64,000 nucleotides of DNA from Flectonema sp. DT1601. Lineage: Eukaryota. The stretch spans positions 372,001-436,000 of the forward strand of contig OZ025799.1 of NCBI GenBank assembly GCA_964019425.1, read 5' to 3'. Shown piece by piece: positions 15,230-49,651 of this stretch. The notes beneath the pieces are model-generated. The model saw only the letters and a program-made list of their open reading frames with translations. It did not search any database and was not told where the DNA came from. The translations under genes were made by a program, and so were the position numbers. Within the stretch, counting starts at the first letter, position 1. Each line of letters begins with the position of its first letter.

Positions 15230-18200
15230 CTATTTCTGATTCTTTTCTTTGAGACGCTTCTTCGATTGTAATCTCTGCCAAGATTCAATACGCTTCTTAA
15301 GAAGGGGATTGTTGTATGGATTTCTGTACCGAATTTCTTTGTCTTCTGCTGTTCTCCAACCTTCACCCTTCTTTTCCCAGGCAGTCTCTTTAACAACGCT
15401 CCTTCTGAAGATATTTTGGACACGGTAAACTGCATCACTTGAATTTTTGACCTCATCACTCTTCTTTGTTCCTTCAAACTGTTGTATTTTGTTGGTTTAA
15501 TTATTCCTCGTTGCGAGATGGCCTAACTCTACAGTAAAGTAAAAATAGTAAACAAAAAAATAAACAAACCTTCTCACCATCGATGAATTTAAAGTATCTA
15601 CTATCCCTGAGAGGGTATCCTGGAAATAATGTGACTTCTTCTCCTGCAGGTGGTTCACGTTTTCCTTCATGACCAGGACCATTTTTGTGGTAGTACGTGT
15701 ATTCCCAAATTCCGAACTTATCAGGTGTGATAAGACCCATTCTAGCCTCAGAAGTGTTTGCTGTATTAGACAAGAAGTCGTCCCAGTATTCTTGCTTTTT
15801 AAGAAGAGAAGTTTCAATAGGTGAACGGTACTCCGGTTCAGAGACTTGACGCTCTTTAATAGGAGGTATTTCATTAATTTCTGAAGGAGGTTTTTCGAGG
15901 TTTGTCCATTCTCTCGGACTATCAGGATGAGCACGCATCCTTTCTGCAAGACTTTCTGTCATGTAACCTCTCATCTTCTCATTCGCATAGACATCGCGAA
16001 TAAGCTCCTCAGGTGGTAAGTTACCTTCTCCAATAACTGGGAATCTCCATGGAGTCTTTTCTTTTGCGATAGCTTCGTGATCGCGCCAACGTGTTGTGAC
16101 ACTTCCTCCGTTTGCTTCTATGGCCTCAATTGCTTTAGGATCTACACTCTCAACGTCGATATCGATTTTACCTTTAAACCATTTACAGTTATTAAATGTT
16201 ATCTTAATACCTGGCCAATGATAATCTCCAACACAACGAGACTCAACTAATGTGTTGGGTGTAATGACCTCGTTAGTATTAAGCATTCCTGTATCTATCC
16301 ACCATTGAATTTGATCAAGACCTACTTTTGTGTATAGTTCTTCAACAACAACATGTCCTTCTTTGGTACCCCATCCTGTGTATCCAAGCATGGGAATAAA
16401 TTTCCAATAACTGTAATGCGGTTGAGTGCTTTTCCTCCAGTAGTCTGCACCATGAACTTGTTCATTTGACAACATACTTTGAACCCAGTACGGGTTAGCT
16501 CCTTGAAATTTTCGCAATTTGTTATGTTTCCATGCGTGAGGTCTTCTTTCACCCGCAAATTTACGAGATTTCTCTCTCTGGTTTTGCGTCGCATGTCCCC
16601 AAAACTTGTATGCACTTTTTTTAAAAGACAATCTCCTGTTAAGGTACGCACCCGGATTACTATATTCCTTCCAAACATTGTGATCTTCACCTTCGGTCAC
16701 AATTTCTTCTGGCTTTGTTGCATATGATAATGGTCGTTGCATTGGAATATTTTTATGCCACCAAAATAATTGAGGAATTGGATGTTTCACCGGATCGTAT
16801 GATATTGGTTCAACTACTTGTTCCGTAAACCATTTTGGTTTTATTTTACCAGGTTCGCATTCTTCAAAAACTAATCTCAAGTCAAGCAAGTCATATGGAA
16901 TCATCCTTGATACCATTCCATTAATATTACCTGAACATGGTACCGCGTCTTCTCCATTTACATTCTTAACACCACCTGCGAAAGCTCCAGGAACATATGT
17001 CTCACCTTCTTTCATTTCTGATATTTTAATTTGATCATCAATAGTCTTGCTTGTTGATCTACTCCAGAACTGTTAGTGTGGTGTTGGTGTTATAATATTA
17101 TTATTAAACAGAGTAAGAGAAACTATTGTGTTCACGTGGTGAGAGAAACATTCCAATCAGCCGATGCTGTCTCATAATATTTTGTGATCTCAGCCTCCGT
17201 AGAGTCATCTAACCGCAATATTTTTGTCATCACGCAGGAAAGATGAGTAGTAGTTCGCAAAGAACACAAGGAACCAGACAGAGACAAGAGAAACATTCCA
17301 ATCAGCCGATGCTGTCTCATAATATTTTGTGATCTCAGCCTCCGTAGAGTCATCTAACCGCAATATTTTTATCATCACGCAGGAAAGATGAGAAGTAGTT
17401 CGCAAAGAACACAAGGAACCAGACAGAGACAAGAGAAACATTCCAATCAGCCGATGCTGTCTCATAATATTTTGTGATCTCAGCCTCCGTAGAGTCATCT
17501 AACCGCAATATTTTTGTCATCACGCAGGAAAGATGAGTAGTAGTTCGCAAAGAACACAAGGAACCAGACAGAGACAAGAGAAACATTCCAATCAGCCGAT
17601 GCTGTCTCATAATATTTTGTGATCTCAGCCTCCGTAGAGTCATCTAACCGCAATATTTTTATCATCACGCAGGAAAGATGAGAAGTAGTTCGCAAAGAAC
17701 ACAAGGAACCAGACAGAGACAAGAGAAACATTCCAATCAGCCGATGCTGTCTCATAATATTTTGTGATCTCAGCCTCCGTAGAGTCATCTAACCGCAATA
17801 TTTTTGTCATCACGCAGGAAAGATGAGAAGTAGTTCGCAAACAACACAAGGAACCAGACAGAGACAAGAGAAACATTCCAATCAGCCGATGCTGTCTCAT
17901 AATATTTTGTGATCTCAGCCTCCGTAGAGTCATCTAACCGCAATATTTTTGTCATCACGCAGGAAAGATGAGAAGTAGTTCGCAAAGAACACAAGGAACC
18001 AGACAGAGACAAGAGAAACATTCCAATCAGCCGATGCTGTCTCATAATATTTTGTGATCTCAGCCTCCGTAGAGTCATCTAACCGCAATATTTTTGTCAT
18101 CACGCAGGAAAGATGAGAAGTAGTTCGCAAAGAACACAAGGAACCAGACAGAGACAAGAGAAACATTCCAATCAGCCGATGCTGTCTCATAATATTTTGT

Positions 18201-19548
18201 GATCTCAGCCTCCGTAGAGTCATCTAACCGCAATATTTTTATCATCACGCAGGAAAGATGAGTAGTAGTTCGCAAAGAACACAAGGAACCAGACAGAGAC
18301 AAGAGAAACATTCCAATCAGCCGATGCTGTCTCATAATATTTTGTGATCTCAGCCTCCGTAGAGTCATCTAACCGCAATATTTTTGTCATCACGCAGGAA
18401 AGATGAGAAGTAGTTCGAAAAGAACACAAGGAACCGGACAGAGACAAGAGAAACATTCCAATCAGCCGATGCTGTCTCATAATATTTTGTGATCTCAGCC
18501 TCCGTAGAGTCATCTAACCGCAATATTTTTATCATCACGCAGGAAAGATGAGTAGTAGTTCGCAAAGAACACAAGGAACCAGACAGAGACAAGAGAAACA
18601 TTCCAATCAGCCGATGCTGTCTCATAATATTTTGTGATCTCAGCCTCCGTAGAGTCATCTAACCGCAATATTTTTATCATCACGCAGGAAAGATGAGTAG
18701 TAGTTCGCAAAGAACACAAGGAACCAGACAGAGACAAGAGAAACATTCCAATCAGCCGATGCTGTCTCATAATATTTTGTGATCTCAGCCTCCGTAGAGT
18801 CATCTAACCGCAATATTTTTGTCATCACGCAGGAAAGATGAGAAGTAGTTCGCAAAGAACACAAGGAACCAGACAGAGACAAGAGAAACATTCCAATCAG
18901 CCGATGCTGTCTCATAACATTTTGTGATCTCAGCCTCCGTAGAGTCATCTAACCGCAATATTTTTGTCATCACGCAGGAAAGATGAGAAGTAGTTCGCAA
19001 AGAACACAAGGAACCAGACAGAGACAAGAGAAACATTCCAATCAGCCGATGCTGTCTCATAATATTTTGTGATCTCAGCCTCCGTAGAGTCATCTAACCG
19101 CAATATTTTTATCATCACGCAGGAAAGATGAGTAGTAGTTCGCAAAGAACACAAGGAACCAGAAAGAGACACATTCCAATTAACTGATTTGCCATCACGC
19201 AGGGAGTTCATCAACTGCGCGTCTTTAACCGAAATAAAAATGTCTTTCAGTCAAATTTAAAAGAGTCATTTTCGCAAGCGAGTCAGTCGTTAACCGCAAA
19301 GTTGTTTTATCATCATTTAGTTATAGCATTCTAAGAAGAAACTTCTAAAACTTTCCACAGTCAAATCAGTATGAGAGGCAGGCGAATAGAACGTACGACA
19401 CGGATTTAGGGGCGAATTTAAGCATACAGATACAGTATCAAATAAAAGAATAGTAACATACTGTAGAGTAAGTTCCTCCAACACCGTGGGGACCCATCTG
19501 AGCGGCATTTGCTCCACTCACAAGCAAGGAGGTGTTCCTCCGCAACAT
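15230..19548 (-). CDS. MRPL15: Mitochondrial ribosomal protein uL15m, extended form, 3 exons (19548-19462, 17069-15570, 15478-15230), about 611 aa
   Basis: uL15m-like core LDQIQWWIDTGML..NEVITP..L...IDIDV....KAIEAIEANGGSVTT. Exon 1 encodes MLRRNTSLLVSGANAAQMGPHGVGGTYST followed by a GTATGT donor. The acceptor CACTAACAG at 17070 joins in phase 0. Intron 2 (15569-15479) is also phase 0. Confidence 0.8.
17141..19170 (-). repeat. Tandem array of 14 near-identical 145-bp units plus a degenerate 15th fragment (about 19171-19206)
   Basis: Exact 145-bp periodicity: the CTGA D box lies at 17157-17160 in the first unit and 19042-19045 in the last. Only a few recurring SNPs. Confidence 0.98.
17151..19125 (-). 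ncRNA. 14 copies of a box C/D snoRNA (about 77-90 nt each; first copy 17240-17151)
   Basis: Each unit on the minus strand reads TTCC-TGC-GTGATGA (C box)-YAAAAATATTGCGGTTAG-ATGA (D')-CTCTACGGAG hairpin-GCTGAGA (C'-like)-...TATTATGAGACAGCATCGG-CTGA (D)-TT-GGAA. The terminal TTCC/GGAA stem closes it, and C to D spans 77 nt. Confidence 0.8.
19243..19320 (-). ncRNA. Second, distinct box C/D snoRNA (single copy)
   Basis: ATGATGA C box (19316-19310), guide ACTTTGCGGTTAACGA, D' CTGA (19286-19283), TCGC-TT-GCGA hairpin, C'-like ATGACT, guide CTTTTAAATTTGA and D CTGA (19250-19247). C to D spans 70 nt. Confidence 0.72.
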
Positions 19549-19809: not shown

Positions 19810-21386
19810 TTACTTCTTCTTGGTGGCGGCAACCTTCTCGGTGGTCTTGGTAACCTTTCCAAGCATGACAACACCGTTACCTTCCATGATAGCGACACGG
19901 GAAAGACCCTCGCAGTTCTTGAAGGAGTCCACAACAAGTGGCTGTTGTGGGGTGAAGACGACCTCAGCCATCTCGTTAGCCTTCAGGCAGTGGGGTTCCT
20001 CGGCCTTCTTTCCTCCGGTTTCTTTACCCATCTTCCACACCAACTGAGTCATTCTCACGGCGGATCTTCCGGTACGCACGAAGCATACTGGAGTGTATCC
20101 AACCTTCAACTCACCAGGGTGGTCAAGGATCTGAACCTGAGCAGTGAAGGTTCCGGCCTCCTTCAAGGATCCGTCCTTCTTGTACACCATCACGTCTCCG
20201 GTACGAGGCATGTTGTCCTTGTTAAGTCCCTTGACGTTAAGACCAACGTTGTCTCCGGCCTTGGCCTCGTCAGTTCTCTTGTGGTGCATTTCACAGGTGA
20301 AAACCTTTCCAGTGCACGCGTTGGCGGCAGTGTGGGTTGGAAGGAAGAGAACTTCCTCACCAGGCTTGACAATTCCCTGCTCAACACGTCCAGTGATGAC
20401 ATCACCAACTCCCTTAATCTGTTTTTGGTGTTTGTTTGTTTGAATGAGCAGCAGCAGCAGCAGCAGAGCTCACAGAAAACGTGACACAAAAGATAACCAA
20501 AGAAAAGATTCCCACGGATCGATGCTGTGTAAAAAAAGGGACAGCTGACCCTGTTAAACAATTTAAAAGATTACCATACCTTGTAGACTCCTGAGACAGG
20601 CATTCTCATTGGGGCGTCGTTCTTACGCTCAGGCATACGAACCATGTCGTTCAAGGCATCTCTGAGGGTGTTGATGTGAAGCTTCTCATCAGCTCCGATG
20701 AGGACTTCCTGTCCCTTCCACCAGTCCATCTTCACAGACTTCTTCAACAAGTTGTCTCCGATCCATCCTGAGATTGGGATGACTGGAACAGACTTCTCAA
20801 CGAAGTCCTTCTTCCATCCAGTCTTGATAAGCATACTCTTCATCTCTTCCTTGATCTCAGTGAATCTCTCCTCCTTGTACTTGGCGACATCACAGTCCAT
20901 CTTGTTGATTCCGACGATCAACTGCTTTACTCCCAACAAGTTGATAAGACGAGCGTGCTGACGGGTCTGTCCCTGGATCTCTCCGGCCTTGTGGTTTCCA
21001 CGGGCGATGGCACTGACGAAGTTACCGTCAGCTGGAACCATCAGAAGAGCAACATCGGCCTGGGAGGCTCCAGTGATCATGTTCTTGATGAAATCTCTGT
21101 GTCCTGGGGCGTCGATGACGGTGTAGTGCCACTTGTCTGTGAAGAACTCCTTGGTGGTACAGGCGATGGTCACACCTCTCTCACGCTCTTCCTTCTGACG
21201 GTCCATGTAGAACGCGAAGGCGAACGACTGCTTTCCAAGACGCTCAGCCTCGGCCTTCAACTTCTCCATCTCACGCTCTGGGATTCCACCCAACTCGAAG
21301 AGAAGACGTCCGGTGGTGGTCGACTTTCCACTGTCAACGTGACCGCAGATCACGATGGACAAATGGTCCTTTCCGTCAGTTGCCAT
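19810..21386 (-). CDS. EFL: Elongation factor-like GTPase EFL, copy A, 2 exons (21386-20580, 20418-19810), 471 aa
   Basis: GHVDSGKSTTTGRLLFELGGIPERE, DAPGH and NKMD motifs plus the EFL-type segment ARGNHKAGEIQGQTRQHARL. Phase-0 GTATGG...AAAACAG intron of 161 nt. GC-biased codon usage. Confidence 0.93.
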
Positions 21387-21838
21387 TTTGATAAGAGTTT
21401 GAAAGCTTAGCTGTTGGGGTAGAGAACCAATTTACAAAGATACTTCTTACCAAATACCTTACAATGGTATCGACGACGCAAAGACTCTTCCAAGTGAAGA
21501 GGGGTTAGAATAAGCAAACCGCGACGAATACCTCAGAAATAATAGAAAATAAGACACAGATTAAGACTACCTAAACACATCTATAGTTGTGTAATTTATC
21601 AATTATACAACTACCTACAATAAGATAATGTTTTGTTTTGGTTTTGATTTGTTATTTATCAGAAGAAGGTTTCTAGTTAGTAAGAGAGACCCACCACGAT
21701 CGAAATTAGAAAATATAAAAACCCCCATTTATCATATTGACGGATGGTTAGTTGCAAAGATACCGATACCAATGCCAGTTTATATTAAAGTGAAACGGTT
21801 ACTTAACAAGACAGGTAAATGGTATATCAGTTAGATAG

Positions 21839-23043: not shown

Positions 23044-24634
23044 CTACTTCTTCTTGGTGGCGGCAACCTTCTCGGTGGTCTTGGTAACCTTTCCAAGCAT
23101 GACAACACCGTTACCTTCCATGATAGCGACACGGGAAAGACCCTCGCAGTTCTTGAAGGAGTCCACAACAAGTGGCTGTTGTGGGGTGAACACGACCTCA
23201 GCCATCTCGTTAGCCTTCAGGCAGTGGGGTTCCTCGGCCTTCTTTCCTCCGGTTTCTTTACCCATCTTCCACACCAACTGAGTCATTCTCACGGCGGATC
23301 TTCCGGTACGCACGAAGCATACTGGAGTGTATCCAACCTTCAACTCACCAGGGTGGTCAAGGATCTGAACCTGGGCAGTGAAGGTTCCGGCCTCCTTCAA
23401 GGATCCGTCCTTCTTGTACACCATCACGTCTCCGGTACGAGGCATGTTGTCCTTGTTAAGTCCCTTGACGTTAAGACCAACGTTGTCTCCGGCCTTGGCC
23501 TCGTCAGTTCTCTTGTGGTGCATTTCACAGGTGAAAACCTTTCCAGTGCACGCGTTGGCGGCAGTGTGGGTTGGAAGGAAGAGAACTTCCTCACCAGGCT
23601 TGACAATTCCCTGCTCAACACGTCCAGTGATGACATCACCAACTCCCTTAATCTGTTTTCGGTGTTTGTTTGTTTGTTTGAATGAGCAGCAGCAGCAGCA
23701 GCAGCAGCAGCAGAGTTCACAGAAAACGTGACACAAAAGATAACCAAAGAAAAGATTCCCACGGATCGATGCTGTTTAAAAAAAAGGGACAGCTAACCCT
23801 GTTAAACAATTCAAAAGATTACCATACCTTGTAGACTCCTGAGACAGGCATTCTCATTGGGGCGTCGTTCTTACGCTCAGGCATACGAACCATGTCGTTC
23901 AAGGCATCTCTGAGGGTGTTGATGTGAAGCTTCTCATCAGCTCCGATGAGGACTTCCTGTCCCTTCCACCAGTCCATCTTCACAGACTTCTTCAACAAGT
24001 TGTCTCCGATCCATCCTGAGATTGGGATGACTGGAACAGACTTCTCAACGAAGTCCTTCTTCCATCCAGTCTTGATAAGCATACTCTTCATCTCTTCCTT
24101 GATCTCAGTGAATCTCTCCTCCTTGTACTTGGCGACATCACAGTCCATCTTGTTGATTCCGACGATCAACTGCTTTACTCCCAACAAGTTGATAAGACGA
24201 GCGTGCTGACGGGTCTGTCCCTGGATCTCTCCGGCCTTGTGGTTTCCACGGGCGATGGCACTGACGAAGTTACCGTCAGCTGGAACCATCAGAAGAGCAA
24301 CATCGGCCTGGGAGGCTCCAGTGATCATGTTCTTGATGAAATCTCTGTGTCCTGGGGCGTCGATGACGGTGTAGTGCCACTTGTCTGTGAAGAACTCCTT
24401 GGTGGTACAGGCGATGGTCACACCTCTCTCACGCTCTTCCTTCTGACGGTCCATGTAGAACGCGAAGGCGAACGACTGCTTTCCGAGACGCTCAGCCTCG
24501 GCCTTCAACTTCTCCATCTCACGCTCTGGGATTCCACCCAACTCGAAGAGAAGACGTCCGGTGGTGGTCGACTTTCCACTGTCAACGTGACCGCAGATCA
24601 CGATGGACAAATGGTCCTTTCCGTCAGTTGCCAT
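23044..24634 (-). CDS. EFL: Elongation factor-like GTPase EFL, copy B, 2 exons (24634-23828, 23652-23044), 471 aa
   Basis: Protein matches copy A in the translated ORFs. Same intron position, 175 nt long. Confidence 0.93.
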
Positions 24635-24829
24635 TTTGATAAGAGTTTGAAAGTTATTCTGTCAGAGGAAAAGACTAAATATAAACTTGAAAAGAAAAAG
24701 AAAAAGAAACAAACAACCACAAGGTGTAAATGGTATCAACAAGAACAAAACAGCAGACTAAATACGTCAGTCGATCATAGATTGAAAAATCAAGACAACC
24801 GTCATCTAATATAATCAGAGGTTGATAAA

Positions 24830-35766: not shown

Positions 35767-38700
35767 ATTAATATCAGAGTGATCTCTACTTGTACAACCC
35801 TGTGAGTAATTGAAAAGATATATAAATAACTATGTTTATGACTTCCAAGTGTGGTCAGAAGCACTCTCACAACTCGCGACATTTGTCTTCGTTGGTTGAA
35901 AGAATAATTAAGAAACGCTTCACACAAAAATACAAATATACTTCACCCACTGAAGAGACTCATAAAAAAAAAGGGATTTGGGAAAGGGGTGATTTGGGTA
36001 GGGAAAGTAGTAAGAAATACGAGATGCACACTTGGGTGCCTCTCTCTGTTCACTTGGGGTGAAGTTCCTTGAAAAGGTGGATTTTCGTTGCGTTATTTTT
36101 TTGCTTGCTAACACTTCTAAAAGATGTATTTGAAAAAGAGAATTCTTCGATTGATAACAATCCTTTTCAATGACACACACACACCTGTGACTTTAGAACG
36201 ACGATAAGTTTTGTCAAGAGAGTGTACTCAACACTTAGGAGCTATAACATTAAGTGCCGAGTTATCTTTCTAGTTGGCAGGGGTTGTTACATTCCAAGAT
36301 TCTCAACGAAAGCAACAACAACAACAAGACAGTACAAGTCCTATTTAGTTATTAAAATTAATAATAAGTACAGCAAGGCCAAAATGATAGAGATATATAC
36401 GAAATCATCTCTCGAAAACGATCGATATAAACAAAAACCAGACCACGAAGTCAAGCTCTGGGAAGAGACTCGGGCGATGCAATGAAGCATCGAACATAGA
36501 CGCAATGGGAATGGGTCACAGAATGTAATTGTTTACTATATAACAGATACAACCAGCAAGAGGGATTGGGTGGGAGGAATGTAAAAATCTACGCCCAACA
36601 AAAAACCTCTTTTGGTTGGTGTCTTAAAGTAGGTGCTGATGTATCACTGATGTATACAGAAATCATAGAATAGTAGTCACTTGGGAAGGTACCTTCCAAT
36701 AGTGTACTACGAAAAAAAAAAAAGAAAGGGGGAAAAAAAAAAAGGAAAGGCATAATTGTAAAGACCGCTATCAAAGGTTTCGCAACACCAACAACAACAC
36801 CAACAACAGTGAGAGAGATAACGACCGACCGTGAGAACATCTACAGCACGGAATCCCCCTTGATAGCTAAGCGTCTTTGTAGTAGTTTCCTATGTCCACC
36901 TGACTATTAGGTTAACCACTTCTTCATTCTGCTTTTAAAAATAATTCATGGAAGCAATTGATAAAAATTGCATTTAAAGGAAACGGAAAAAGATAGAAAA
37001 AGTGTTTGCGCAAACTACATGGATGATGCTACTGCTATTGTAATCAACATCTCAACAGATTAAAAGAGACTAAGATTTCAATCAGAACAAGCGACAAGCA
37101 AAAACAGTTTCCAATTTTTCTTATTACCAAAACCTTCAGGGAAAAAAAAAAAAAAAAGAAAGAAAAAAAAAGAAAATCAACTCTTTCGAGGTGAGTATTA
37201 GATTAATGGGGGAATTCAGTATGTTCTTTTGTTCAGAAAACACTTTACTAATAATGTAAGAAATACTTCTTTTATCTTTAAGCGACGTGTGGAGTAGGAT
37301 GGGAAAAAGAAAAGAAACCGAACTCATTCCAAGAAATGGTGATGTTTGTTTAGTTTGAGAGAATATCAAAAATGATGCAGTAGTTTTGTTATTCAATGCA
37401 ATCCATTGCTTGTTGGATTTTTCAACAAAAAAAAAAAAAAAAAAAAAAAAATGAAAAATAACTTTCTCAACGAAGAGAGTTTTTTTCTTTTTTTTTTTTT
37501 TTTAAAAATCCCTTTAACACATTTCCCCATCTTCGGAATGGGTCCTGAAAATAATTAGTGAAAAGAAAAAAAAAAACGATACTTTAAAAAAAAGAAAAAG
37601 GTTCTGATGAAAAAAGAAACTTTTATTAATTCCCTTTCACCAACCTCACCGTTAAATTACGTGCGACCATGTTAGCCAGATCTGTTCATATGGTGCACTA
37701 ACAGTTTTTATACACGCTGTAACACGAAAGTTCAGATCATCGTTGTGTCTGTATTGTGTATATTCGCTATTGTGTAACAGCGCAATCTAGTTACCAGACT
37801 CTGCCAACGACTAAACTTAATTGTGATTAACAACATAAAGTTAAGGGGGCTGCGAATGTCTTAGCCAAGCCTTTTTTTTTTTTTTTATATTATTATATTC
37901 TTATAAAATCCGGTATACCTCTTCAGAAAACCGATTATAACCAAACGACTGCCTTGTTAGTAGCAACGCAGCAATAAAAGTCAACTAAAGGGACAGAAAG
38001 TGACTCGGGGAAGAAACTGGGGATTCAGCGCAACGGATAACGCACTTTCTCGCATGTAAGTTCCTATTTTTTTTATTTATGGTCTGTCTGATTTATTAAA
38101 AGGATTAAAGGAAGCAAGAATAATGAAAGGACAGCTGATTGATATTAAATATATAGCTAAAACTGATTGTCTTGTGCGTGTAGAGAACGGATCTCACAGA
38201 CAATTTCCTTATTTCCAATCGATTTTTTCCGTATCAATTATCAAATGAGAAGAAGAAAGGTTGACAGGTTCAACAGAATAATTAAATCAATCGCGATGAC
38301 GAAATAAATAAAAAAAGAAAGGAAAAAGAAAAAAATAAAAGAACGAAAGAAACAAACAAAAGTCAGTGTCTTTTTCCATCCGAAACAAAAAACTAATCTG
38401 CACCGAAGGCAGATCGCTTTGGTTCAGTTTGACACGTCCTGAGAATATAGCCACAGGTCACTTAGCCTGTTCAAGGAAATTATGATGAAATTCAACGAGA
38501 CACTGCCTTGTCCCTAGTTTAGGGATTGCCTGTTCAGTGTCTCTCGGTCATCAAGTCTGATTAAAAAGAATTTGACATAATAACGTAACGATCACAGAAT
38601 TAAATAGAAATAAGAATAAGATACAACAACCATCTCAAAATCGTACCCTTCGTTAGCTAAATCATCCCTTTTGCTAAACTTCTCAGCAAAGGGATGGACG

Positions 38701-41700
38701 GAGTGAACGTGCCTTCCACGCAGTGTTTTTTCTTTTTACAAAGAGAACAACACAGATCTGAAGAGTACTCCTCCTTGCACGTTGCTAAAGCTCTCTACAA
38801 AGGAAAGAATGACGGTATGATATCAGTTTCTTCTTTCTGGAGAAAACTAATGAACGAATTTTCCAGTTCTTGTTTTTTTTTTCATTTACAGAGAAATGCT
38901 TTTACCTTTTTAATGTTCTCAAAGGGTTTGTCGGTTCGAGAATAAGAATTTTCAAAATATAAAAAAAAAAATGGAGTCCGGTGTACGCAGCTCGTACAAG
39001 AAGGGGGATGATCATACTGACAAACACGATAAAACGCTACAACACAACACACTTGAATATTGTTAATAATCAGAGGATTCTCTGTTATTTCAATCCGAGC
39101 CTGCAAACGGAAAAAACTACCAAAAATATAAGTTTTTGGATTTCGTAAGCACTGCTCTCACACGCTAAAATATGATTTTTTTTTTTTATAAACTAAGCGA
39201 GTCACTAGGCTCATGACCTCTGTTTCCTCAAGCAATGCTGCTTTTTACACCGGACGCAGAAAAAGTAAGAATCAAGAAAAAGAACGGGGAATAGGGAATA
39301 AAAACCTTGTCATTAGCAAGCAGAACAATCCATAAGCAAGCAATCGTTTTTTTTTTTTTTGAAAAGCTAGGAGAGCAATAAGAGATTGCTCTCCCAGCTT
39401 TGATTGCGAACAGCAACACAGCCAGAGATACATGACTCAGTTTTTGATGAAGGGAACTAAGTAAGGCCAAGAAAGAGAGTTGGGGGGAGAGCAGGGGTTT
39501 TTAAACTGTTAGCTGACATTGACAAAAAGAAAATTAAAAAAGAAAATGTGGGGAAAGTCGACGCTCCGAAAAAATTAATTTTCTAAAACACCATTCACAA
39601 TGGAGGAGAATAATAATAAGAAATAAAAACAAAAAAAAAAGGGGAAATAGGGAAACCACTGTTCTCACACAGTGATTATAATAATAAAAAAAGAAAAAGA
39701 AAAAGAGTATGTATAAAAGATAATAATTTGTTTTGTTTTGTTTTGCTTTGTTTGTTTTTTTTGTTTTTTTGTTTTTTTTTTAACAAGGAAAAAGACTTTT
39801 AATAAGGTTCTTTATTACTTATGGGTCAGCTATTCATTCCAACGTTAGGGAGTTCCAACACACTCGAGGAGAACCGGGTTTTTCTTCGAGGATTCCCAAT
39901 GCGTTGTTTGCATTATATGAGTATTTGAGTAAAAAATGACCACCAATTACAATTATTCTAAAGTCAATAAATACCTTGCAAAAAAAAAAAAAAAAAAAAA
40001 AAAAAGTATAACATAACAGAATTTGAAAAAAAACGTATAGAAAGGCTTACTCAAAACAGACTTATTCATTATTATTATTATTATTTCTTTTTTAATCATT
40101 TTTTTAAACACGTTGGACAATTCGATTCGGTTGAACAGCTGTCACAAGTTACCAACGTATAATTTATAATCAAAAAGGTTAACCACAGCTAATATTCATA
40201 GCGTGTGAAAAATAACTTTTAAGTAGAAAGATAAGGATGGAACAAAAAGTGCCTTTATGATTGAGCAAATAATAGCCTTTTAAACGATAATGAGGATTCT
40301 CACATAATAGAATTTATCTAATTTGTTACTGTGAAGAGTTGAAATGGACGGAAACAAAAGAGATCAAAGGAAAAAAAAAGAAAGAAAAAAAAAACTAAAA
40401 ATCTTTTTTCTAAAGGCAAGCAACACTGATAACGAAGGTTCTGATATTTATATAGTAGCGAAGCTTGAAAAAAAAATTCTGCTTTTTTTTTATTTTTTAT
40501 TTTTTTTAATACAACTTTTTTTAAACAGATAGTACTCCTACTACCACTAGCCTAAAAAAAAACTTACCTACTAGGTTAGTTTTTTTTTTTTTTTTTTTTT
40601 TGTTCTTTTTTTTTTTTTTTTTTTTTTTTTCCGTCGTTTATTTTACCGGACAGATTCCCAAAAAATATTTTATACATCGTGGGAATGATCCTTGTGGACA
40701 AGAGAGGAAGTATTCAGGTACCAGTAAGCTTGAAACTAACTATCTCATAACCGCATGAGAAAAGAAAAGAAAAAAATCCAAGCAATAAAAAAATAATAGA
40801 GAGGTAGTATATGAGTTTGTTTGTTTGTTTTTTTTTGTTCAGGAATACAAATTTATACGTAAAAAAAAAAAAAAAAAAAAAAAAAAGAAGGAAAAAATAT
40901 AGATTTAATATGAAAAAACAAAAATGGAGGGGAGAGAAAGAAAAAACGGCCACTAAAGCTAGTATCATTAATTAAAGCTAGTTAGTTGGTAAGGCCTTAT
41001 AAACAGATAAGAATAAAGGGGGAAAAAAAAAAAGGAAATTAACTTTTGCTATTTAAGTCATTTTTTTTTTTTCTCTCAATCTAGTTTGCTTCTGAACTAG
41101 TTGAGTAGTAGCTCAAACAAAACCGGGTAGCTCTTCAAGGAGACAAAACCCATTCGCAGTCAAAGACGGAGGTAACCGCGCTATATGAAAAAAAACTTGC
41201 TATAAAGTAAAGCAGTACAGGGAAAGAAACATGTAAGTATTTATACAAAACATCTATGAGAGGAGACTCTATGCCTTACAGCGGGTTCGCTGTTTTTTTT
41301 AAAAAGGCTTTTGATTCCCCGTCTCGAAAGTCGGTTTATGCAGAAAAGGACGTTGCAGGCTCAAATAATAATTAAATTAGGTAAGCGTCGCCTTGCAAAA
41401 AAAAAGGTTGTGTAACAATATTAAAAAAAAAGAGAGAAATTATATACAATTTGCTACTACATACTGTTACTGGGGGAACACCACTGTTATGAAATGTTCA
41501 GATTATGTTTTGACAGCGGGTTGCTTTGTCTGATCCATAGCCCCTTCTCTTCTATTCACGTCATACTACCAAAGAGTAAAGCATAGGTTAGTTCGGTTGG
41601 TTAGATTGACCGCAAACGGTCGATTATCCGATTCGTTCTTTTTTTTTTTTTCTTTTATTTATTTTTTTTTTTTTTTTCTCCCAAACAACTACAACAACGT

Positions 41701-41757
41701 TTTTCACATCTAAATTACAACACACTATAATAACCTTAATTTTTTTGTACGAAAACT

Positions 41758-42105
41758 AAAGTAGTTTGCAGGTTTCATCGATACACTAAAAAAAAATATA
41801 ATTTTATGACATGGCTAGTTAGTTAGTTAGTTAGTTAGTTATTTAATCCAACGTTACTGTATATTATGAGTGCTAGGTAACTCACAGTAACAGAGGACCC
41901 AATCCGTAGCCATATCCGAAGATTTCGCATGGATTGTTGAAGTAGCATCGACTGAAAGATTAATAAATACCAATCTCCAGCTTTCCGCCTCGCCTAGCTT
42001 ATTAAACTATCGAACTAAAATAAAATAAAAGTAGTTTGCAGGTTTTATCGATACACTAAAAAAAAATATAATTTTATGACATGGCTAGTTATTTAATCCA
42101 ACGTT
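41758..42105. repeat. Local duplication of about 80 bp (41758-41854 and 42028-42105)
   Basis: aaagtagtttgcaggtttYatcgatacactaaaaaaaaatataattttatgacatggctagtt...atttaatccaacgtt occurs twice. The first copy carries a (TAGT)n expansion. Confidence 0.9.
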
Positions 42106-43411
42106 GCCGTATAATAAGTATACCAATCTGAGGCTAGGCTATTGTATAAAAAAGATTAAAAAAGAAACGTCAACGCGTAGCAGGAGTACCACAAAAAAAA
42201 AAAAAAAAAAGAAATATTTCATCTTTCAGTAGTGTCATTTGCTAACAAATTATGAAGCTGGATTCAACTGAAGAAGTAGAAAAAAAAAGTTTAAAAACGT
42301 ATATTTTAAAAGAGAATTCTAAAAAAATAAAAAAAGAACAGATCATGTCATCTGCAATCAAGGAGAGACATGCTATTCATGGAAAGAAATTCAAGCCCCC
42401 TGAAGGTGTAGTTTGTCACGTAAGCTTTAAATCAGCTTTGATCAATAAAAATAGTGACAAGGTGACGAATTAAGAATAATAATAAAAGGAATGAGTTAAT
42501 CGGCGAATACAAAATGTGTATAATAAAACAATGCAGCCGATTCAAAAAAAAAGAATGTAAAAAAAAAGTCTCTCAAGCGGCGTATTCTTTTAGGAAACAG
42601 TTATCAACTTCATTGATTTCAAACTGCCAACTGCTTGCAAGAGATAGTACAGGGTTGGAGGTAGGGTGGGACTGCAGTTTGCTATTTAATAAAATTCGTG
42701 TCATTGTAGCAGCAAATTCATCCCGAAAGTAGCTGCCTGTCCCTCAAAACAGAGACGATCCCGGCACAGTCAATCCGTGCTTGTCGACCGCAATGGTAGA
42801 ACACCCGCGGCGAAGGTGGCAGCTTCGGTGAAGGGACGTATTGTCCTCTGCAATCTAGTTTACAGTGATGATTCCGTCGCAAATCTGAAGTGAAGCATGT
42901 CGCCTGCCTTCAAAGGAGGAAAAGATTAACGTGCCGCAAACTAGTTTCGATTGGACTGTCGCTGTGTTCGCATTGCCAGAAGTCGCAAAATGGCGGCAAT
43001 CTTACGAGAAGCGATCAGTACCACTTGTAAACCAATTGCTAGTCAACGTATTAACCAAATCCTCGTGAAGCACGTGACGTGAACTTGTTTTCTTAAAGAA
43101 CCGACGTGTCAACCGCAAATTGCGGTGAAAATAGCGGTCTTTTTTTATCCTTGAACAGTATGGATGTTTAAAATGGCATAAAAATTCGCAAAAGCACTTC
43201 AACAACAGTGCTCGACTCGCGCTGCCGGTCAACCGTAAGAAGCCGACGGTGACGGTGGCAGATTCGGGACAACGCCCAAACAAAGGAAAGCTGATATCGT
43301 GTAAAAAGAAGAAAAAATTAATTAGAGGTGTGGGGGGGGTAAATTGACACTGTATGTATTAACAAGCTCAAGGGGGAATCAACTTTGTCCGCCACAACAT
43401 TTGAATCACTC

Positions 43412-43442
<31 letters not shown>

Positions 43443-45640
43443 TTTTTTTACCCCCTCCCTTATCAGTTCGGTAATCAACCAAACGAAAAGGGAAAATACA
43501 TTATAAATACTTAAAACTCTAGGGGAAATAAATTATTCCAACTGCGAGGGGAAAAAAAAAAAAAAAAAAAAAAAAAAAGGCGGAAAAAGACACTACGTTA
43601 TGATAATAGTATAACGTAGCGGAATAAAATTATTTAGAGAGAAAGAAACAAAAAGAGCTGTTGTCATTACTTTAAGAAACTTCTTCTTATAAGATATGAA
43701 TTTATGTCAAGCGATTTAAGAAATAAAAAAAAAAGAACACCATTGAAGAGTACAGCTGCCGGTTATGATTTCTTAGGAAACTTCTTCCTTGTTAGTAAGA
43801 ATAAATTAAAAACGAAATAATAAAAATAAAAATAATAAAAAAAAAACCGATATTGCAGTGTAACAAAAAAATGATGCTCCGAATAGGCTTAGTTATTATA
43901 AGAAAAAAATAAAGAAAAAAGGGAATAAAAAAAAGGTCAAGGATAACAAGTGAAAAATTGAAAGGGGGGAGGAAAAAAAAAAAGGGGGAAAAAATAATGA
44001 AAAAAAAAAAAAAAAAAAACATTCCACTTTAAGGGAATACGCTTTTTTTTTTTTTTTTTTTTTTTTTTCTTCACTTTTTTTGGAGCACGGTGGTACCAGA
44101 AGAAACGGAGAAATGAATAGCGTAAACGACTAAATTATTTCAATCTTTTTTGTCAGTCAACTAAAGTACTGGGTGGGGGAATGGGGAGGGGAACGATTTT
44201 TTAACCAAAAACCCCCTCATGAAGTAGCCACGAAGGTATTCACTCCATGTCGTAAGGCTAAAAGTTCTCTGATTGGTGTTTTCGATAATTATTTTTCTCT
44301 GATTCTTTTATTTCAAGGTGGGCAATTCTATCTTCGTTATTTTTTTTTTTTCTGTTTTCGGTAAAATGAAGAAAACAAAAACAAAAAAAAAAAATTAAAA
44401 AATTAAAAAAAACGAAGAAGATCATCTGGTTAGTACACCACACAATTCCAAAACCTACCTCGAAACGGTAGATCGAATTGCTTGAGAAGGAAGAAGAAAA
44501 AAAAAATGAGAAATAAAAATACGAACAAAATTATCTTTTTTTTTCGTTGTTTTTGTAAAGTAGATTTCAAGTGTGGTCCTTCTTTACTAAATTAAGAATA
44601 TTAGAAAAGAAGGGTTTTTTTGTATCAATTTTTTTTTTCTTTTTTTAGAACCAAACGCTAAAGAATGGCCAGCTCCGAAAGAAGGCAAAAAAAAAAAAAA
44701 CAAAAAAAAAAAAAATAACAAACTGAAAATCCCTTTGAAAAAGCATTTCACGGGGCTTGAGCGACTGTCAGGGTAGACACAAGGCGATTCAGGTCCTACC
44801 CAGTCACTTTACCCAGTTATATAAATTAACCTGAGACAGCATTCAGACAGCAGGCATCTTCGGCATTTCCAGGGAACTAAAGAGCAAGGAATCTTACTGT
44901 GGCATATCAATAAAGACACGACGTTGAGCAGTAATTATCCTTTTTTTTTTTTTTTTTTTTTTTTAAGACAGAAAAAAGTTGGTCAAATATTCTAACAAGA
45001 GGAGAATATCAATTTCCATTCAAGATAGAATAGCTATAGTAAAGAGGGGATAAGGATAAAGGAAGGTTCTCTTTTTTTTTTTTTTTTTTTTTTATATTTC
45101 GTTTTTACACCTCTCTGACTAATCAGCAGGCTCCGAGAACAATTCAAAAAAAAAAAAGAAAGTAACTTGACAAGCCGCAGATCGGTTGCTTGTTATTACG
45201 CGTCCCTTTTTTTTTTTTTTTCTGCTATAGAGGAGTCCTCACAACGGATAATCACCGTTGCTGACTACAACAACAAAGCTCATCAATAAATTTATTCGTT
45301 TATTTTTTTTATTATTATTAATATTTCTCTTTTTTTTTTTTTTTTTTTTTTTTCTTCACTTCTTTTTCTTTTTTTTGTTTTTTTTTTTTTCTTGTTCCAG
45401 AGAAGGAGCAAAAAACGTGGAGGAAAAAAAGGCATCTGGTCGTGCAGAAACAAGAACGGACAAGGAAAAATTAACGAGCATTCAGCTTCACCAAAAAAAC
45501 CAATTAAAAAAAAGGAATTGGGTGGTTATGCCTGCTCTATAATTTCATCGGAAAAAAAATAAAAAATAAATATCATAATTTCAATAACAAAAAATAAATT
45601 AAATTTAACGCTAACAGAACAGAATCAAAGTTGCTTGTAC

Positions 45641-46254: not shown

Positions 46255-46556
46255 GAAGGTTCTGCTGTCTTAACCATCTGTCTTTAACCTGCTAAGAAAC
46301 TATTAATAATAAAGAATCTGAACACCATGATAGAATACAATAAATGAAATAGGAACCCATCAACTAATTGAATCGATAAGCTGACTGTTTCCAATCCTCA
46401 GTTCAGTTAGTCAGGTTACTGTGATACTCTTTCAATTGAACTATCAAGAGTGTTAGTGATAAGAGTTAATAAAATAACTTACGTCACAACTGAAGTATGT
46501 GTTTAGAAGGACAACCAACGAAAACAACAGCACAGGTCCTATTCATATCGGCAAGG
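46255..46556 (-). repeat. 300-bp block downstream of GPx copy 1, duplicated at 48043-48345
   Basis: Near-identical to 48043-48345 with only scattered substitutions. Confidence 0.92.
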
Positions 46557-46856
46557 CGTAATAAGAAATCGAAAGAATAAATCAAATTGTTTTTTCATTT
46601 TCTACGATGTGTAATAATAAAGCTTGTGTCGCTATTATGTCAACGTGGTCTAACAATTAAATATCTCGTTCGTGTGTGTTTTTTTTTTTTTTTTTAAAAA
46701 CAAAACTCCCTCTTCCTCGCTTTTGTATACAATCTGTTCGTTGATTGCTTTTTTATTTGTTTTAACATTTTATAATTTGCAGGTCATTGACGTAGTGAAA
46801 TGTGATTTGCTAAAGTTGTCATGCCTCATGTTTTTTTTGATACGATGTTGTTATTA

Positions 46857-47360
46857 TTAGTTTCCTCCCTTTACAGCTTCTTTAAGCTCTGCTACCATCG
46901 ACGAAACCGAGGCTTTTGGTTCGTAACGTTGAATGAGTTTTCCATCTGGTCCTACCAGAAACTTTGCGAAGTTCCACTTAATTGGTTTAGATTCTTCAGC
47001 ACCAGAAATCGTGTTCTGCATGTACGTCCATGCTGGGTGAGCCTTGTCACCATTAACGTCAACCTTTTCAGTGATGACACCCGGAAAGTTGTATTTCTCA
47101 ACAGCAAAAGCTTTGATTTCAGCTGCTGTACCTGGCTCCTGACCTCCAAACTGGTTACATGGAAAAGCAATAATTTCAAACTTACCTGTCAAAGATGAGT
47201 CTTCATACAACGACTTGTACCCCTTGTACATGTCGTCTGTCAAGCCTCATTTAGATGCGACATTGGTGAGGATGAGAGCCTTGCCAGCGTACTTCGACAG
47301 ACTGTGAGTCTCCCCATCAATGGTAGTGATGCTGAATGCGTGCATGTTCTGTGTTGTCAT
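46857..47360 (-). CDS. GPX: Glutathione peroxidase, selenoprotein (copy 1), Sec TGA at 47249-47247
   Basis: Reading through the TGA gives MTTQNMHAFSITTIDGETHSLSKYAGKALILTNVASK-U-GLT...FPCNQFGGQEP...KWNFAKFL. The TGA is exactly at the peroxidatic position. Confidence 0.9.
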
Positions 47361-48042
47361 CTCTTTTGCTGTGTTCCTTTTTATTTATATTCCTTTTTTT
47401 TCTTGTCAAAAAAAAAGAGGAAATCCCCATTCGACCCCAAAAGAATGTTTACTCGTTCAGCTGACAAGCTACTTGTTCTGAATTTCATATTATCTGTTCT
47501 TGCTGACCTTTCTCTTTGTACCTATTCAGGTATGTCACAGTCGGGAACAATGTGGGTCATTTTTGAGACCTCTTGCGGATAAATGCAAGAAAGGAATCGG
47601 GAAATATTTACCCAAGAAGTTCCATTGACGAGGTAAACCAGACAAGGCACGCTGCAGACCAACTGTCTCTTACCATGTACAGAGGCCTTGACATGGCCTC
47701 ACCACAGCAGATTTCACTGTCTGGTGGGTAATAGTTTCGAGCTGCAGCTTGAAACGCCGTGGTACTTCGGCTCTGTCACTATTGCCTGTGCCAGCTGAGC
47801 GGCCAACAACACCAATCCTTTTCAGGCACATCGATAGTAGATAAATAAAATTAACCCCTCGGGGAGATTGATAATTAGACACAATAAGTATCCACTTCAC
47901 AAGAGTTTTTCTTCTGAATTTGTCAGAGCAAAAAAAGAAAGAAAAAAAAATTTAAATAATTTGAAGCGCAGTAATCAGAAGCTAAACACCGCAACAGAAA
48001 ATCAAAGAAATAGAATCCTATTACTTTCTACAGACAGCTTCT

Positions 48043-48345
48043 GAAGGTTCTGCTGTCTTAACCATCTGTCTTTAACCTGTTAAGAAACATATTAATAATA
48101 AAGAATCTGAACACCATGATAGAATACAATAAATGAAATAGGAACCCATCAACTAATTGAATCGATAAGATGACTGTTTCCAATCCTCAGTTCAGTTAGT
48201 CAGGTTACTGTGATACTCCTTCAATGGAACTATCAAGAGTGTTAGTGATAAGAGTTAATAAAATAACTTACGTCACAACTGAAGTATGTGTTTGGAAGGA
48301 CAACTAACGAAAACAACAGCACAGGTCCTATTCATATCGGCAAGG
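48043..48345 (-). repeat. 300-bp block downstream of GPx copy 2
   Basis: Duplicate of 46255-46556. Confidence 0.92.
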
Positions 48346-48516
48346 TTCTATAGTATTTAGTCAGTAACCATTTAAACAAGTAGAATAAGCGGGTTAGTTT
48401 TTTTTTTTTTTTTTTTTTTTTTCCCCCAACAATGTGATATAATCCTTGTGTCGTTATTATTGTCACATCTTAAGAAACCTCCTTCCGCATTTTCTCGCAA
48501 TCTATTCGCTGGATTG

Positions 48517-48862: not shown

Positions 48863-49651
48863 TTAGTTTCCTCCCTTTACAGCTTCTTTTAGCTCTGCTA
48901 CCATCGACGAAACCGAGTCTTTTGGTCCGTAACGCTGAATGAGTTTTCCATCTGGTCCTACCAGGAACTTTGAGAAATTCCATTTAATTGATTTAGTACC
49001 TAAGATCCCAGGGATCTTGTTCTGCATGTACGTCCATGCTGGGTGAGCCTTGTCACCATTAACGTTAACCTTTTCAGTGATGACACCCGGAAAGTTGTAC
49101 TTCTCAACAGCAAAAGCTTTGATTTCAGCTGCTGTACCTGGCTCCTGACCTCCAAACTGGTTACATGGAAAAGCAATAATTTCAAACTTACCTGTCAAAG
49201 ATGAGTCTTCATACAACGACTTGTACCCCTTGTACATGTCGTCTGTCAAGCCTCATTTAGATGCGACATTGGTGAGGATGAGAGCCTTGCCAGCGTACTT
49301 CGACAGACTTTGAGTCTCCCCATCAATGGTAGTGATGCTGAATTCATGCATGTTCTGTGTTGTCATTTGTTTTTACTGTTCTCTTTTGTTTATTTAATTA
49401 AGTTTTTTCGTTCTCTTGTTATTTTAAAAGAAAAAAAGGGGATGTGAAATAGAATTTTTAATTTTCAAAAAAAAAAAGACAACCAAGAAGGGATATAGAA
49501 ATTTTCTTAAAGAAAGAACAAAAAAAAAACAGAAAAATAAAATTGTTAAAACCTTAGTCATCAGATCCTCTGATTGATTTGTAAAAACAAGCCCCCCAAC
49601 TGCAGCAAATGCAACGCCTGCAGCAGCAAGCAGTTTGGCCTTGTAAGTCAT
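48863..49651 (-). CDS. GPX: Glutathione peroxidase, selenoprotein (copy 2), Sec TGA at 49255-49253, with probable hydrophobic first exon 49651-49553
   Basis: NVASK-U-GLT, FPCNQFGGQEP and KWNFSKFL motifs. Upstream exon MTYKAKLLAAAGVAFAAVGGLVF...MTK joins in phase 0 at ACAACACAG (49355). Confidence 0.85.

Follow-up and report, generated by a model that had tools for sequence, protein, structure and literature searches.

The eukaryotic SECIS is defined by a UGAN/KGAW core (PMC3753652), and atypical type II elements have been described from protists, both in Trypanosoma SelT (PMC1557815) and, with long mini-stems, in Ostreococcus and Dictyostelium (PMC2375036). AG is named as a permitted apical pair and the Leishmania SECIS is placed 800-1100 nt from the UGA (PMC1557815). 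Two accounts, in the parts that list them, limit the selenoproteins of kinetoplastids to SelK, SelT and SelTryp (PMC12153298, PMC1557815). Our search of the literature, in which subscription journals were mostly outside scope, found no report of a diplonemid Sec-GPx, selenoprotein or SECIS. Short non-autonomous retroposons known as SIDERs are present in kinetoplastid 3' UTRs. For trypanosomes, repair through microhomology of 5-20 bp, with templated insertion, and gene conversion have been reported (PMC7407515).

The locus described here lies in a window of 64 kb (the whole stretch of DNA that was analysed) from the diplonemid Flectonema sp. DT1601, in which the real genes apparently all lie on the minus strand. 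The window encodes EFL, and its introns have GTATG donors and A-rich acceptors. Two of its genes, GPx1 and GPx2, are like Sec-GPx (PF00255) in their GSHPx domain and in a TGA at the catalytic Cys position, and behind each lies a copy of the same 300-bp block. The explanation that we favour, with moderate confidence, is that the block is distal 3' UTR of GPx1 with an atypical SECIS hairpin, recently copied into the neighbouring GPx2 3' region. If this is true, a selenoprotein family would be added to the Euglenozoa beyond the three kinetoplastid ones, there would be a defined atypical SECIS candidate which standard patterns overlook, and a recoding signal would have moved between paralogs through local copying. 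Should the hairpin have no function, the locus would come down to an ordinary duplication downstream of a Sec-GPx that is probably new. Diplonema papillatum is transfectable (PMC12621601) and the hairpin is therefore open to direct testing.

Two peroxidase genes with an in-frame TGA

The coding features are as follows.

46857..47360, minus strand: GPx1 coding region, with a TGA (predicted Sec) at 47249-47247; Pfam GSHPx E 3e-30
48863..49366, minus strand: GPx2 coding region, with a TGA (predicted Sec) at 49255-49253
49651-49553, minus strand: likely upstream exon of GPx2, proposed from GT..CAG and frame
49212..49246, minus strand: coding-region hairpin of GPx2, about 10 nt past the UGA, identical in GPx1 (47206-47240)

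The first-pass annotation had called both genes Sec-GPx, and our analysis agrees: a TGA stands at the catalytic Cys position of each, and GPx1, on which the Pfam scan was run, has the GSHPx domain. The two coding regions differ at 9 of 109 synonymous sites, with zero differences in codons 20-88. The top relatives are proteins of Flectonema neradi (72%) and Diplonema papillatum, and in a tree of 31 hand-picked rows the window genes join Flectonema with support of 100/99. A search with the Flectonema protein gave six further relatives of 117-125 residues, four from named diplonemids and two from genome contigs, and the 7 relatives form one clade with the two window proteins (support 98/94). The predictions for all seven of these closest relatives begin at a Met 2-6 residues past the catalytic site, the pattern expected of a conserved UGA as far as protein predictions, rather than codons, can tell. 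Since every one of these orthologous predictions starts just past the catalytic site, Sec-GPx looks like a feature common to all Diplonemidae, a reading taken from predicted protein starts. A SECIS is needed because of these starts and of the TGA at the catalytic Cys of both window genes. A conserved Sec codon would make the recoding signal old, so that no recent mobile element is needed to supply one. Three Cys-type homologs have a Cys in the second helix, which we take to be the resolving Cys of such proteins; it is absent from all 8 clade rows that were aligned.

The hairpin that follows the UGA has a z of -3.15 over 52 nt and is equalled in folding by 2.7% of 894 GC-matched coding windows; as modelled, it is possible that it aids recoding. 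The residues M-Y-K/T-G-Y right after the predicted Sec are kept in 6 of the 7 clade relatives (P0003, P0125-P0129) and not in Cys-type homologs, and their codons are those that form this hairpin in GPx1 and GPx2. As a separate observation, the upstream exon at 49651-49553 would give GPx2 a 33-residue hydrophobic leader in frame, and GPx1 is without a leader, so the two paralogs may be sent to different compartments.

The shared block and its candidate hairpin

The block and the hairpin that we discuss within it are placed as follows.

46255..46556, minus strand: block copy 1, putatively the donor and the native far end of the GPx1 3' UTR
48043..48345, minus strand: block copy 2, putative recent insertion in the GPx2 3' region, with 298 bp added (48044-48341)
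46354..46419, minus strand: SECIS-like hairpin of copy 1, 5' core UGAC at 46413-46410, 3' core UGAU at 46362-46359
48143..48208, minus strand: SECIS-like hairpin of copy 2, 5' core at 48202-48199, 3' core at 48151-48148

The near-identity of the two copies, noticed at first pass, was reproduced by blastn (97.4% over 306 nt); their alignment has 303 columns with 6 substitutions and 1 indel, and its ends are sharp. The regions downstream of the genes had also been said to diverge soon after the stops. Similarity of the coding regions does stop at 46826 and 48830, 31-33 nt past the stops, but the outer regions keep patches of similarity. The block is more alike than synonymous coding sites are (6 of 302 against 9 of 109 differences; Fisher p 0.0055). 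Recent copying would account for this identity as well as selection does, and because codons 20-88 are also free of any difference the identity of the block is no proof of selection. A shared 3' island is unusual in this genome because the tandem EFL copies, which are 98.6% identical across coding sequence and intron, have unrelated UTRs on both sides: their similarity ends within ~20 nt of the start codon and exactly at the stop codon. With the EFL pair as example, tandem copies in this genome share only constrained sequence. The EFL genes lie at 19810-21405 and 23044-24653, and their intron holds a CTG run that differs in length.

Beyond these two copies the block was not recovered. In the rest of the 64-kb window the best nhmmer hit for a third copy had an E of 0.16. 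Exact block patterns had no match in metagenome, viral or prokaryote contigs, and blastn of the block gave only 6 phage matches, short and weak (E 0.08-0.3), and none in plasmids. A metagenome scan with the GPx protein gave 80 loci at 40-55% identity, none close and none matching the block. A mitochondrial coding insert was considered and set aside, since translation in all six frames with TGA=W yielded nothing credible in Pfam (best E 0.078). SRP, U3, RNase MRP and telomerase RNA as identities of the block are without Rfam support.

A nested fold of the whole 300 nt had been proposed. All of its stems can be drawn and 44 of 44 pairs are standard in both copies, but structure of the block beyond chance was not borne out: its folding z is +0.96 for copy 1 and +0.44 for copy 2, and 87/100 and 66/100 shuffles respectively fold as well. 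Six sub-domains of each copy gave z from -1.4 to +2.0, the best long-range duplex was equalled by 69 of 200 shuffles, and the ACUCUU stem has a pair probability of 0.01-0.02 in copy 2. The sole locally notable stem is the GUGA..UCAC hairpin (z -2.3, 4/200 shuffles), one of nine stretches folded. Between the copies, none of the 44 pairs has changed on both sides. The 7 differences break no pair of the model, a comparison of little power because just one of them falls in a pair. The 300-nt nested fold thus has no thermodynamic or covariation support.

No canonical SECIS had been seen at first pass, and this was confirmed. We re-implemented the four SECISearch1 patterns given in the supplement of PMC3753652; the strict, default and loose ones match neither 3' region, and no Rfam model matches. 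The loosest pattern has weak matches at 46446 and 48235, one per block copy, and a further match at 48363; it matches 96 cores on the minus strand of the 64 kb. In a freer scan the candidate hairpin ranked first by folding among the UGA...GA hairpins of either 3' region; behind GPx2 a CAGA-led, non-UGA candidate at 48042 folds better.

The candidate hairpin is like type II protist SECIS in lying downstream of a UGA gene, in its UGAN/KGAW core (UGAC/UGAU in both copies, with tandem G.A pairs possible), and in having an apical mini-stem, here capped by GAAA. Helix II has 11 of 13 pairs. By hand the hairpin passes the SECISearch3 filter, which asks for 7-15 pairs in helix II, bending of at most 2 and an energy below -4 (PMC3753652): its apical part is ~21 nt, its helix 13, its bending 2 and its energy -9.6 kcal/mol. 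At 836 (GPx1) and 1053 nt (GPx2) from the UGA its distance is similar to that in Leishmania. It differs from type II elements in its AG where AA is usual, in a 2-nt bulge that adjoins the core, in basal pairing with no clear internal loop, and in a C in place of a purine before the UGA, which is found in both copies and also in the putative older GPx2 hairpin described below; it fails all four re-implemented patterns with their helix I and internal loop, the loosest included, and by hand would be of grade C. An unpaired AA, AG or CC is looked for 11-13 nt above the core of a SECIS; the candidate has AG at +12, partly paired in the MFE fold, and AAA becomes available only if a second register, whose loop is 4 nt, is drawn. 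The two copies differ at one site of the hairpin, located in a 2-nt bulge. Its z is -1.2 and -1.1 in the two copies, it is equalled in folding by 7% of 174 GC-matched non-coding windows, and ~30 distinct and equally stable hairpins on the minus strand of the 64 kb fit the loose definition. The idea that recoding relies on an atypical element thus survives in a narrower form, with the ~60-nt hairpin inside the block as likeliest element and not the whole 300-nt fold. The block probably holds an atypical SECIS hairpin, and this one is our best candidate for it rather than a proven element.

The failure of the published patterns leaves some room for a reading that we consider unlikely, in which the block was indeed copied or converted between the paralogs and the recoding signal lies elsewhere than in the candidate hairpin. 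The signal might be the second register of the same hairpin, whose core at 46405/48194 offers UGA-N12-AAA with canonical spacing; the loop of 4 nt would fall within the 3-17 nt allowed for trypanosome SECIS (PMC1557815), but it is below the 8-nt loop minimum of PMC3753652 and the register is less stable than the first (-7.0 against -9.6 kcal/mol). The weak 46446/48235 match could also serve, but one of the 6 substitutions breaks a pair there. The hairpin past the UGA, with its z of -3.15, and an element formed only after splicing are further options. Speaking against this reading as a whole, the older GPx2 hairpin begins like the first register.

Less probable again is that the block is a separate small RNA cut from a polycistronic transcript, for example a box C/D RNA. 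The block contains CUGA and then UUGAUGG, which we take to resemble a D'/C' kink-turn; this motif pair closes the hairpin, and the 5' internal loop of a SECIS is absent. Against it stand the lack of an Rfam match and, by eye, of a good terminal box C or of a box D common to both copies, and the position of the block behind both Sec genes would then be coincidence. A hammerhead-like CUGAGGA..GAAAC in the block, judged against what we assume to be the hammerhead consensus, has by eye no stem II and no adjacent stem I, and was set aside. A second short hairpin of the block, at 46451-46426 on the minus strand, could likewise form tandem G.A pairs, with a U.U pair in a 6-bp stem, in both copies; it was found by eye and its energy is weak.

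The candidate SECIS hairpin lies 444 nt past the stop of GPx1 and 661 nt past that of GPx2, and the median 3' UTR of D. papillatum is given as ~800 nt (PMC10161547). Pyrimidine tracts followed by AG stand 30-50 nt past copy 1 and 85-130 nt past copy 2. In T. brucei the poly(A) site is placed ~100 nt upstream of the pyrimidine tract (PMC6597758); if this spacing holds here, it would put cleavage inside the final third of copy 1 and, for copy 2, close to the end or slightly beyond it, in both cases below the hairpin. Possible 3' UTR introns were noted at 46843-46734 and 48849-48502 on the minus strand. Identity stops just past a GTATC common to both genes and the ends are A-rich and acceptor-like (...AG); as a donor GTATC is weaker than the GTATG used elsewhere in the window.

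Origin of the second block copy

The features around copy 2 are as follows.

48342..48349, minus strand: upstream 8-bp direct repeat of copy 2, the last 4 bases of which also begin copy 1
48044..48051, minus strand: downstream 8-bp direct repeat of copy 2, the same 8 bases ending copy 1 (46256-46263)
48350..48364, minus strand: 5' half of a putative older GPx2 SECIS-like hairpin; its first 8 bases are also those of the block hairpin
47977..48042, minus strand: 3' half of the putative older GPx2 hairpin, with GGAU at 48018-48015

The direct repeats reported to flank copy 2 are real and 8 bp long. Copy 1 carries this 8-mer at one end only and 4 of its bases at the other, so that a target-site duplication would measure 8 bp for copy 2 and 4 bp for copy 1. 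Where 3.7 occurrences of the 8-mer would be expected there are 10, but 3 of them belong to the blocks. The site of copy 2 and its donor match at the junctions over 4 and 9 bases; four additional matching bases ahead of CCTT were found at 8 of 286 sites.

Such repeats had been taken as a sign that the block might be a small mobile element, a view which our results weaken and which we now regard as improbable. On this view a short non-autonomous element that prefers a certain target would have gone in behind each of the two genes, or a single time ahead of their duplication, and the sharp ends, the 97% identity, the 8-bp repeat at copy 2 and the 4 bases common to both ends of both copies would agree with this, as would the richness of diplonemid genomes in repeats (PMC10161547). 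The block is like SIDERs and MITEs in being short, non-coding, placed in a 3' region and flanked by one pair of direct repeats. It differs from them in being without terminal inverted repeats or A-tail, in having no further copy in the 64 kb and in its relation to the host flanks; it also has no tRNA head, and copy 1 lacks the repeat pair. The flanks of copy 2, moreover, resemble the block itself: on their account we prefer copying from the paralog to an unrelated transposon.

This resemblance has two parts. Downstream of copy 2, positions 48021-47977 are a diverged copy of block nt 197-244 with 34 of 45 aligned bases alike, a match reached by 1-8 of 300 shuffles and found in one of six regions tried. 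Upstream, the 8-mer that starts the block hairpin has three sites on the minus strand, namely the upstream flank of copy 2 and the two blocks; a shared 8-mer alone is ordinary, some 8-mer in common with the block being present in 52 of 190 control windows. When both flanks were scored jointly and in order, 1, 10 and 0 of 646 control junctions (three scorings) came as high as copy 2, and 113, 61 and 50 as high as copy 1; a smaller control set gave 0/133 for copy 2 and 30/133 for copy 1. The test was designed only after the similarity between flank and block had been noticed.

When the 298 added bases are removed in silico, the flanks join into a weak older hairpin that likewise starts with CUGACUAA, and at the core homologous to that of the block the insert-free site fits the loosest of the SECISearch1 patterns. 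In a hand-picked register the helix of the older hairpin carries three double changes relative to the block hairpin, has mismatches in similar places, and is free of a bulge next to the core. The rejoined hairpin is weak, at -1.0 to -5.7 kcal/mol with z from -0.7 to +0.7. Alignments of the whole sites were borderline (3-49 of 500 shuffles as high), and the two sites emptied of the block gave no alignment across the junctions.

We infer the direction of copying, the mechanism and the functional take-over as follows. The loop of the SECIS-like hairpin that GPx2 had before would have suffered a break, and in its repair a stretch of 290 bases would have been copied from GPx1 between the short matches at the junctions, with 8 bases duplicated. 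The older hairpin would thereby have been split and the copied hairpin would have taken over its function, the working recoding element being the ~60-nt hairpin with tandem G.A pairs. Such an event would be like the microhomology-templated insertion and gene conversion of trypanosomes (PMC7407515) in its 4- and 9-base junction matches and short duplication, with a donor that here lies 1.8 kb away; it would differ in that the insert is ~300 bp, that it would replace a cis-acting RNA element and that the host is a diplonemid. An error of assembly that pasted a repeat or a second haplotype into the GPx2 flank would also leave an insert between short repeats, which is typical of a misjoin; with copies that differ at 7 places and a contig of ~1 Mb we find this very hard to credit. 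Copying of the GPx1 tail into the older GPx2 hairpin is the simplest account. More tentatively, and as a possibility that we would not yet call probable, the whole may amount to a diplonemid Sec-GPx that has gone unreported and is decoded by a SECIS whose shape is new, with a CUGA core, an AG at the apex, a bulge at the core and no internal loop, at a locus where one SECIS was split and then replaced from the neighbouring paralog.

Other features of the window

Between block copy 2 and GPx1, positions 47830-47500 of the minus strand are GC-richer and hold a 52-codon ORF without Pfam match; this stretch may be a long 5' UTR, a small gene or a relic. Some 9.5 kb at 36000-45600 have no convincing long ORF and abound in runs of A and T; a 74-bp repeat lies inside, at 41752-41825 and 42022-42095. 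This stretch may be a UTR of great length or mark a boundary of transcription. At 17142-19171, directly upstream of a gene of the ribosomal L15/L27A family, a 145-bp unit stands in 14 tandem copies that are 98% alike; in D. papillatum repeats are described as adjoining the 5' ends of genes (PMC10161547).
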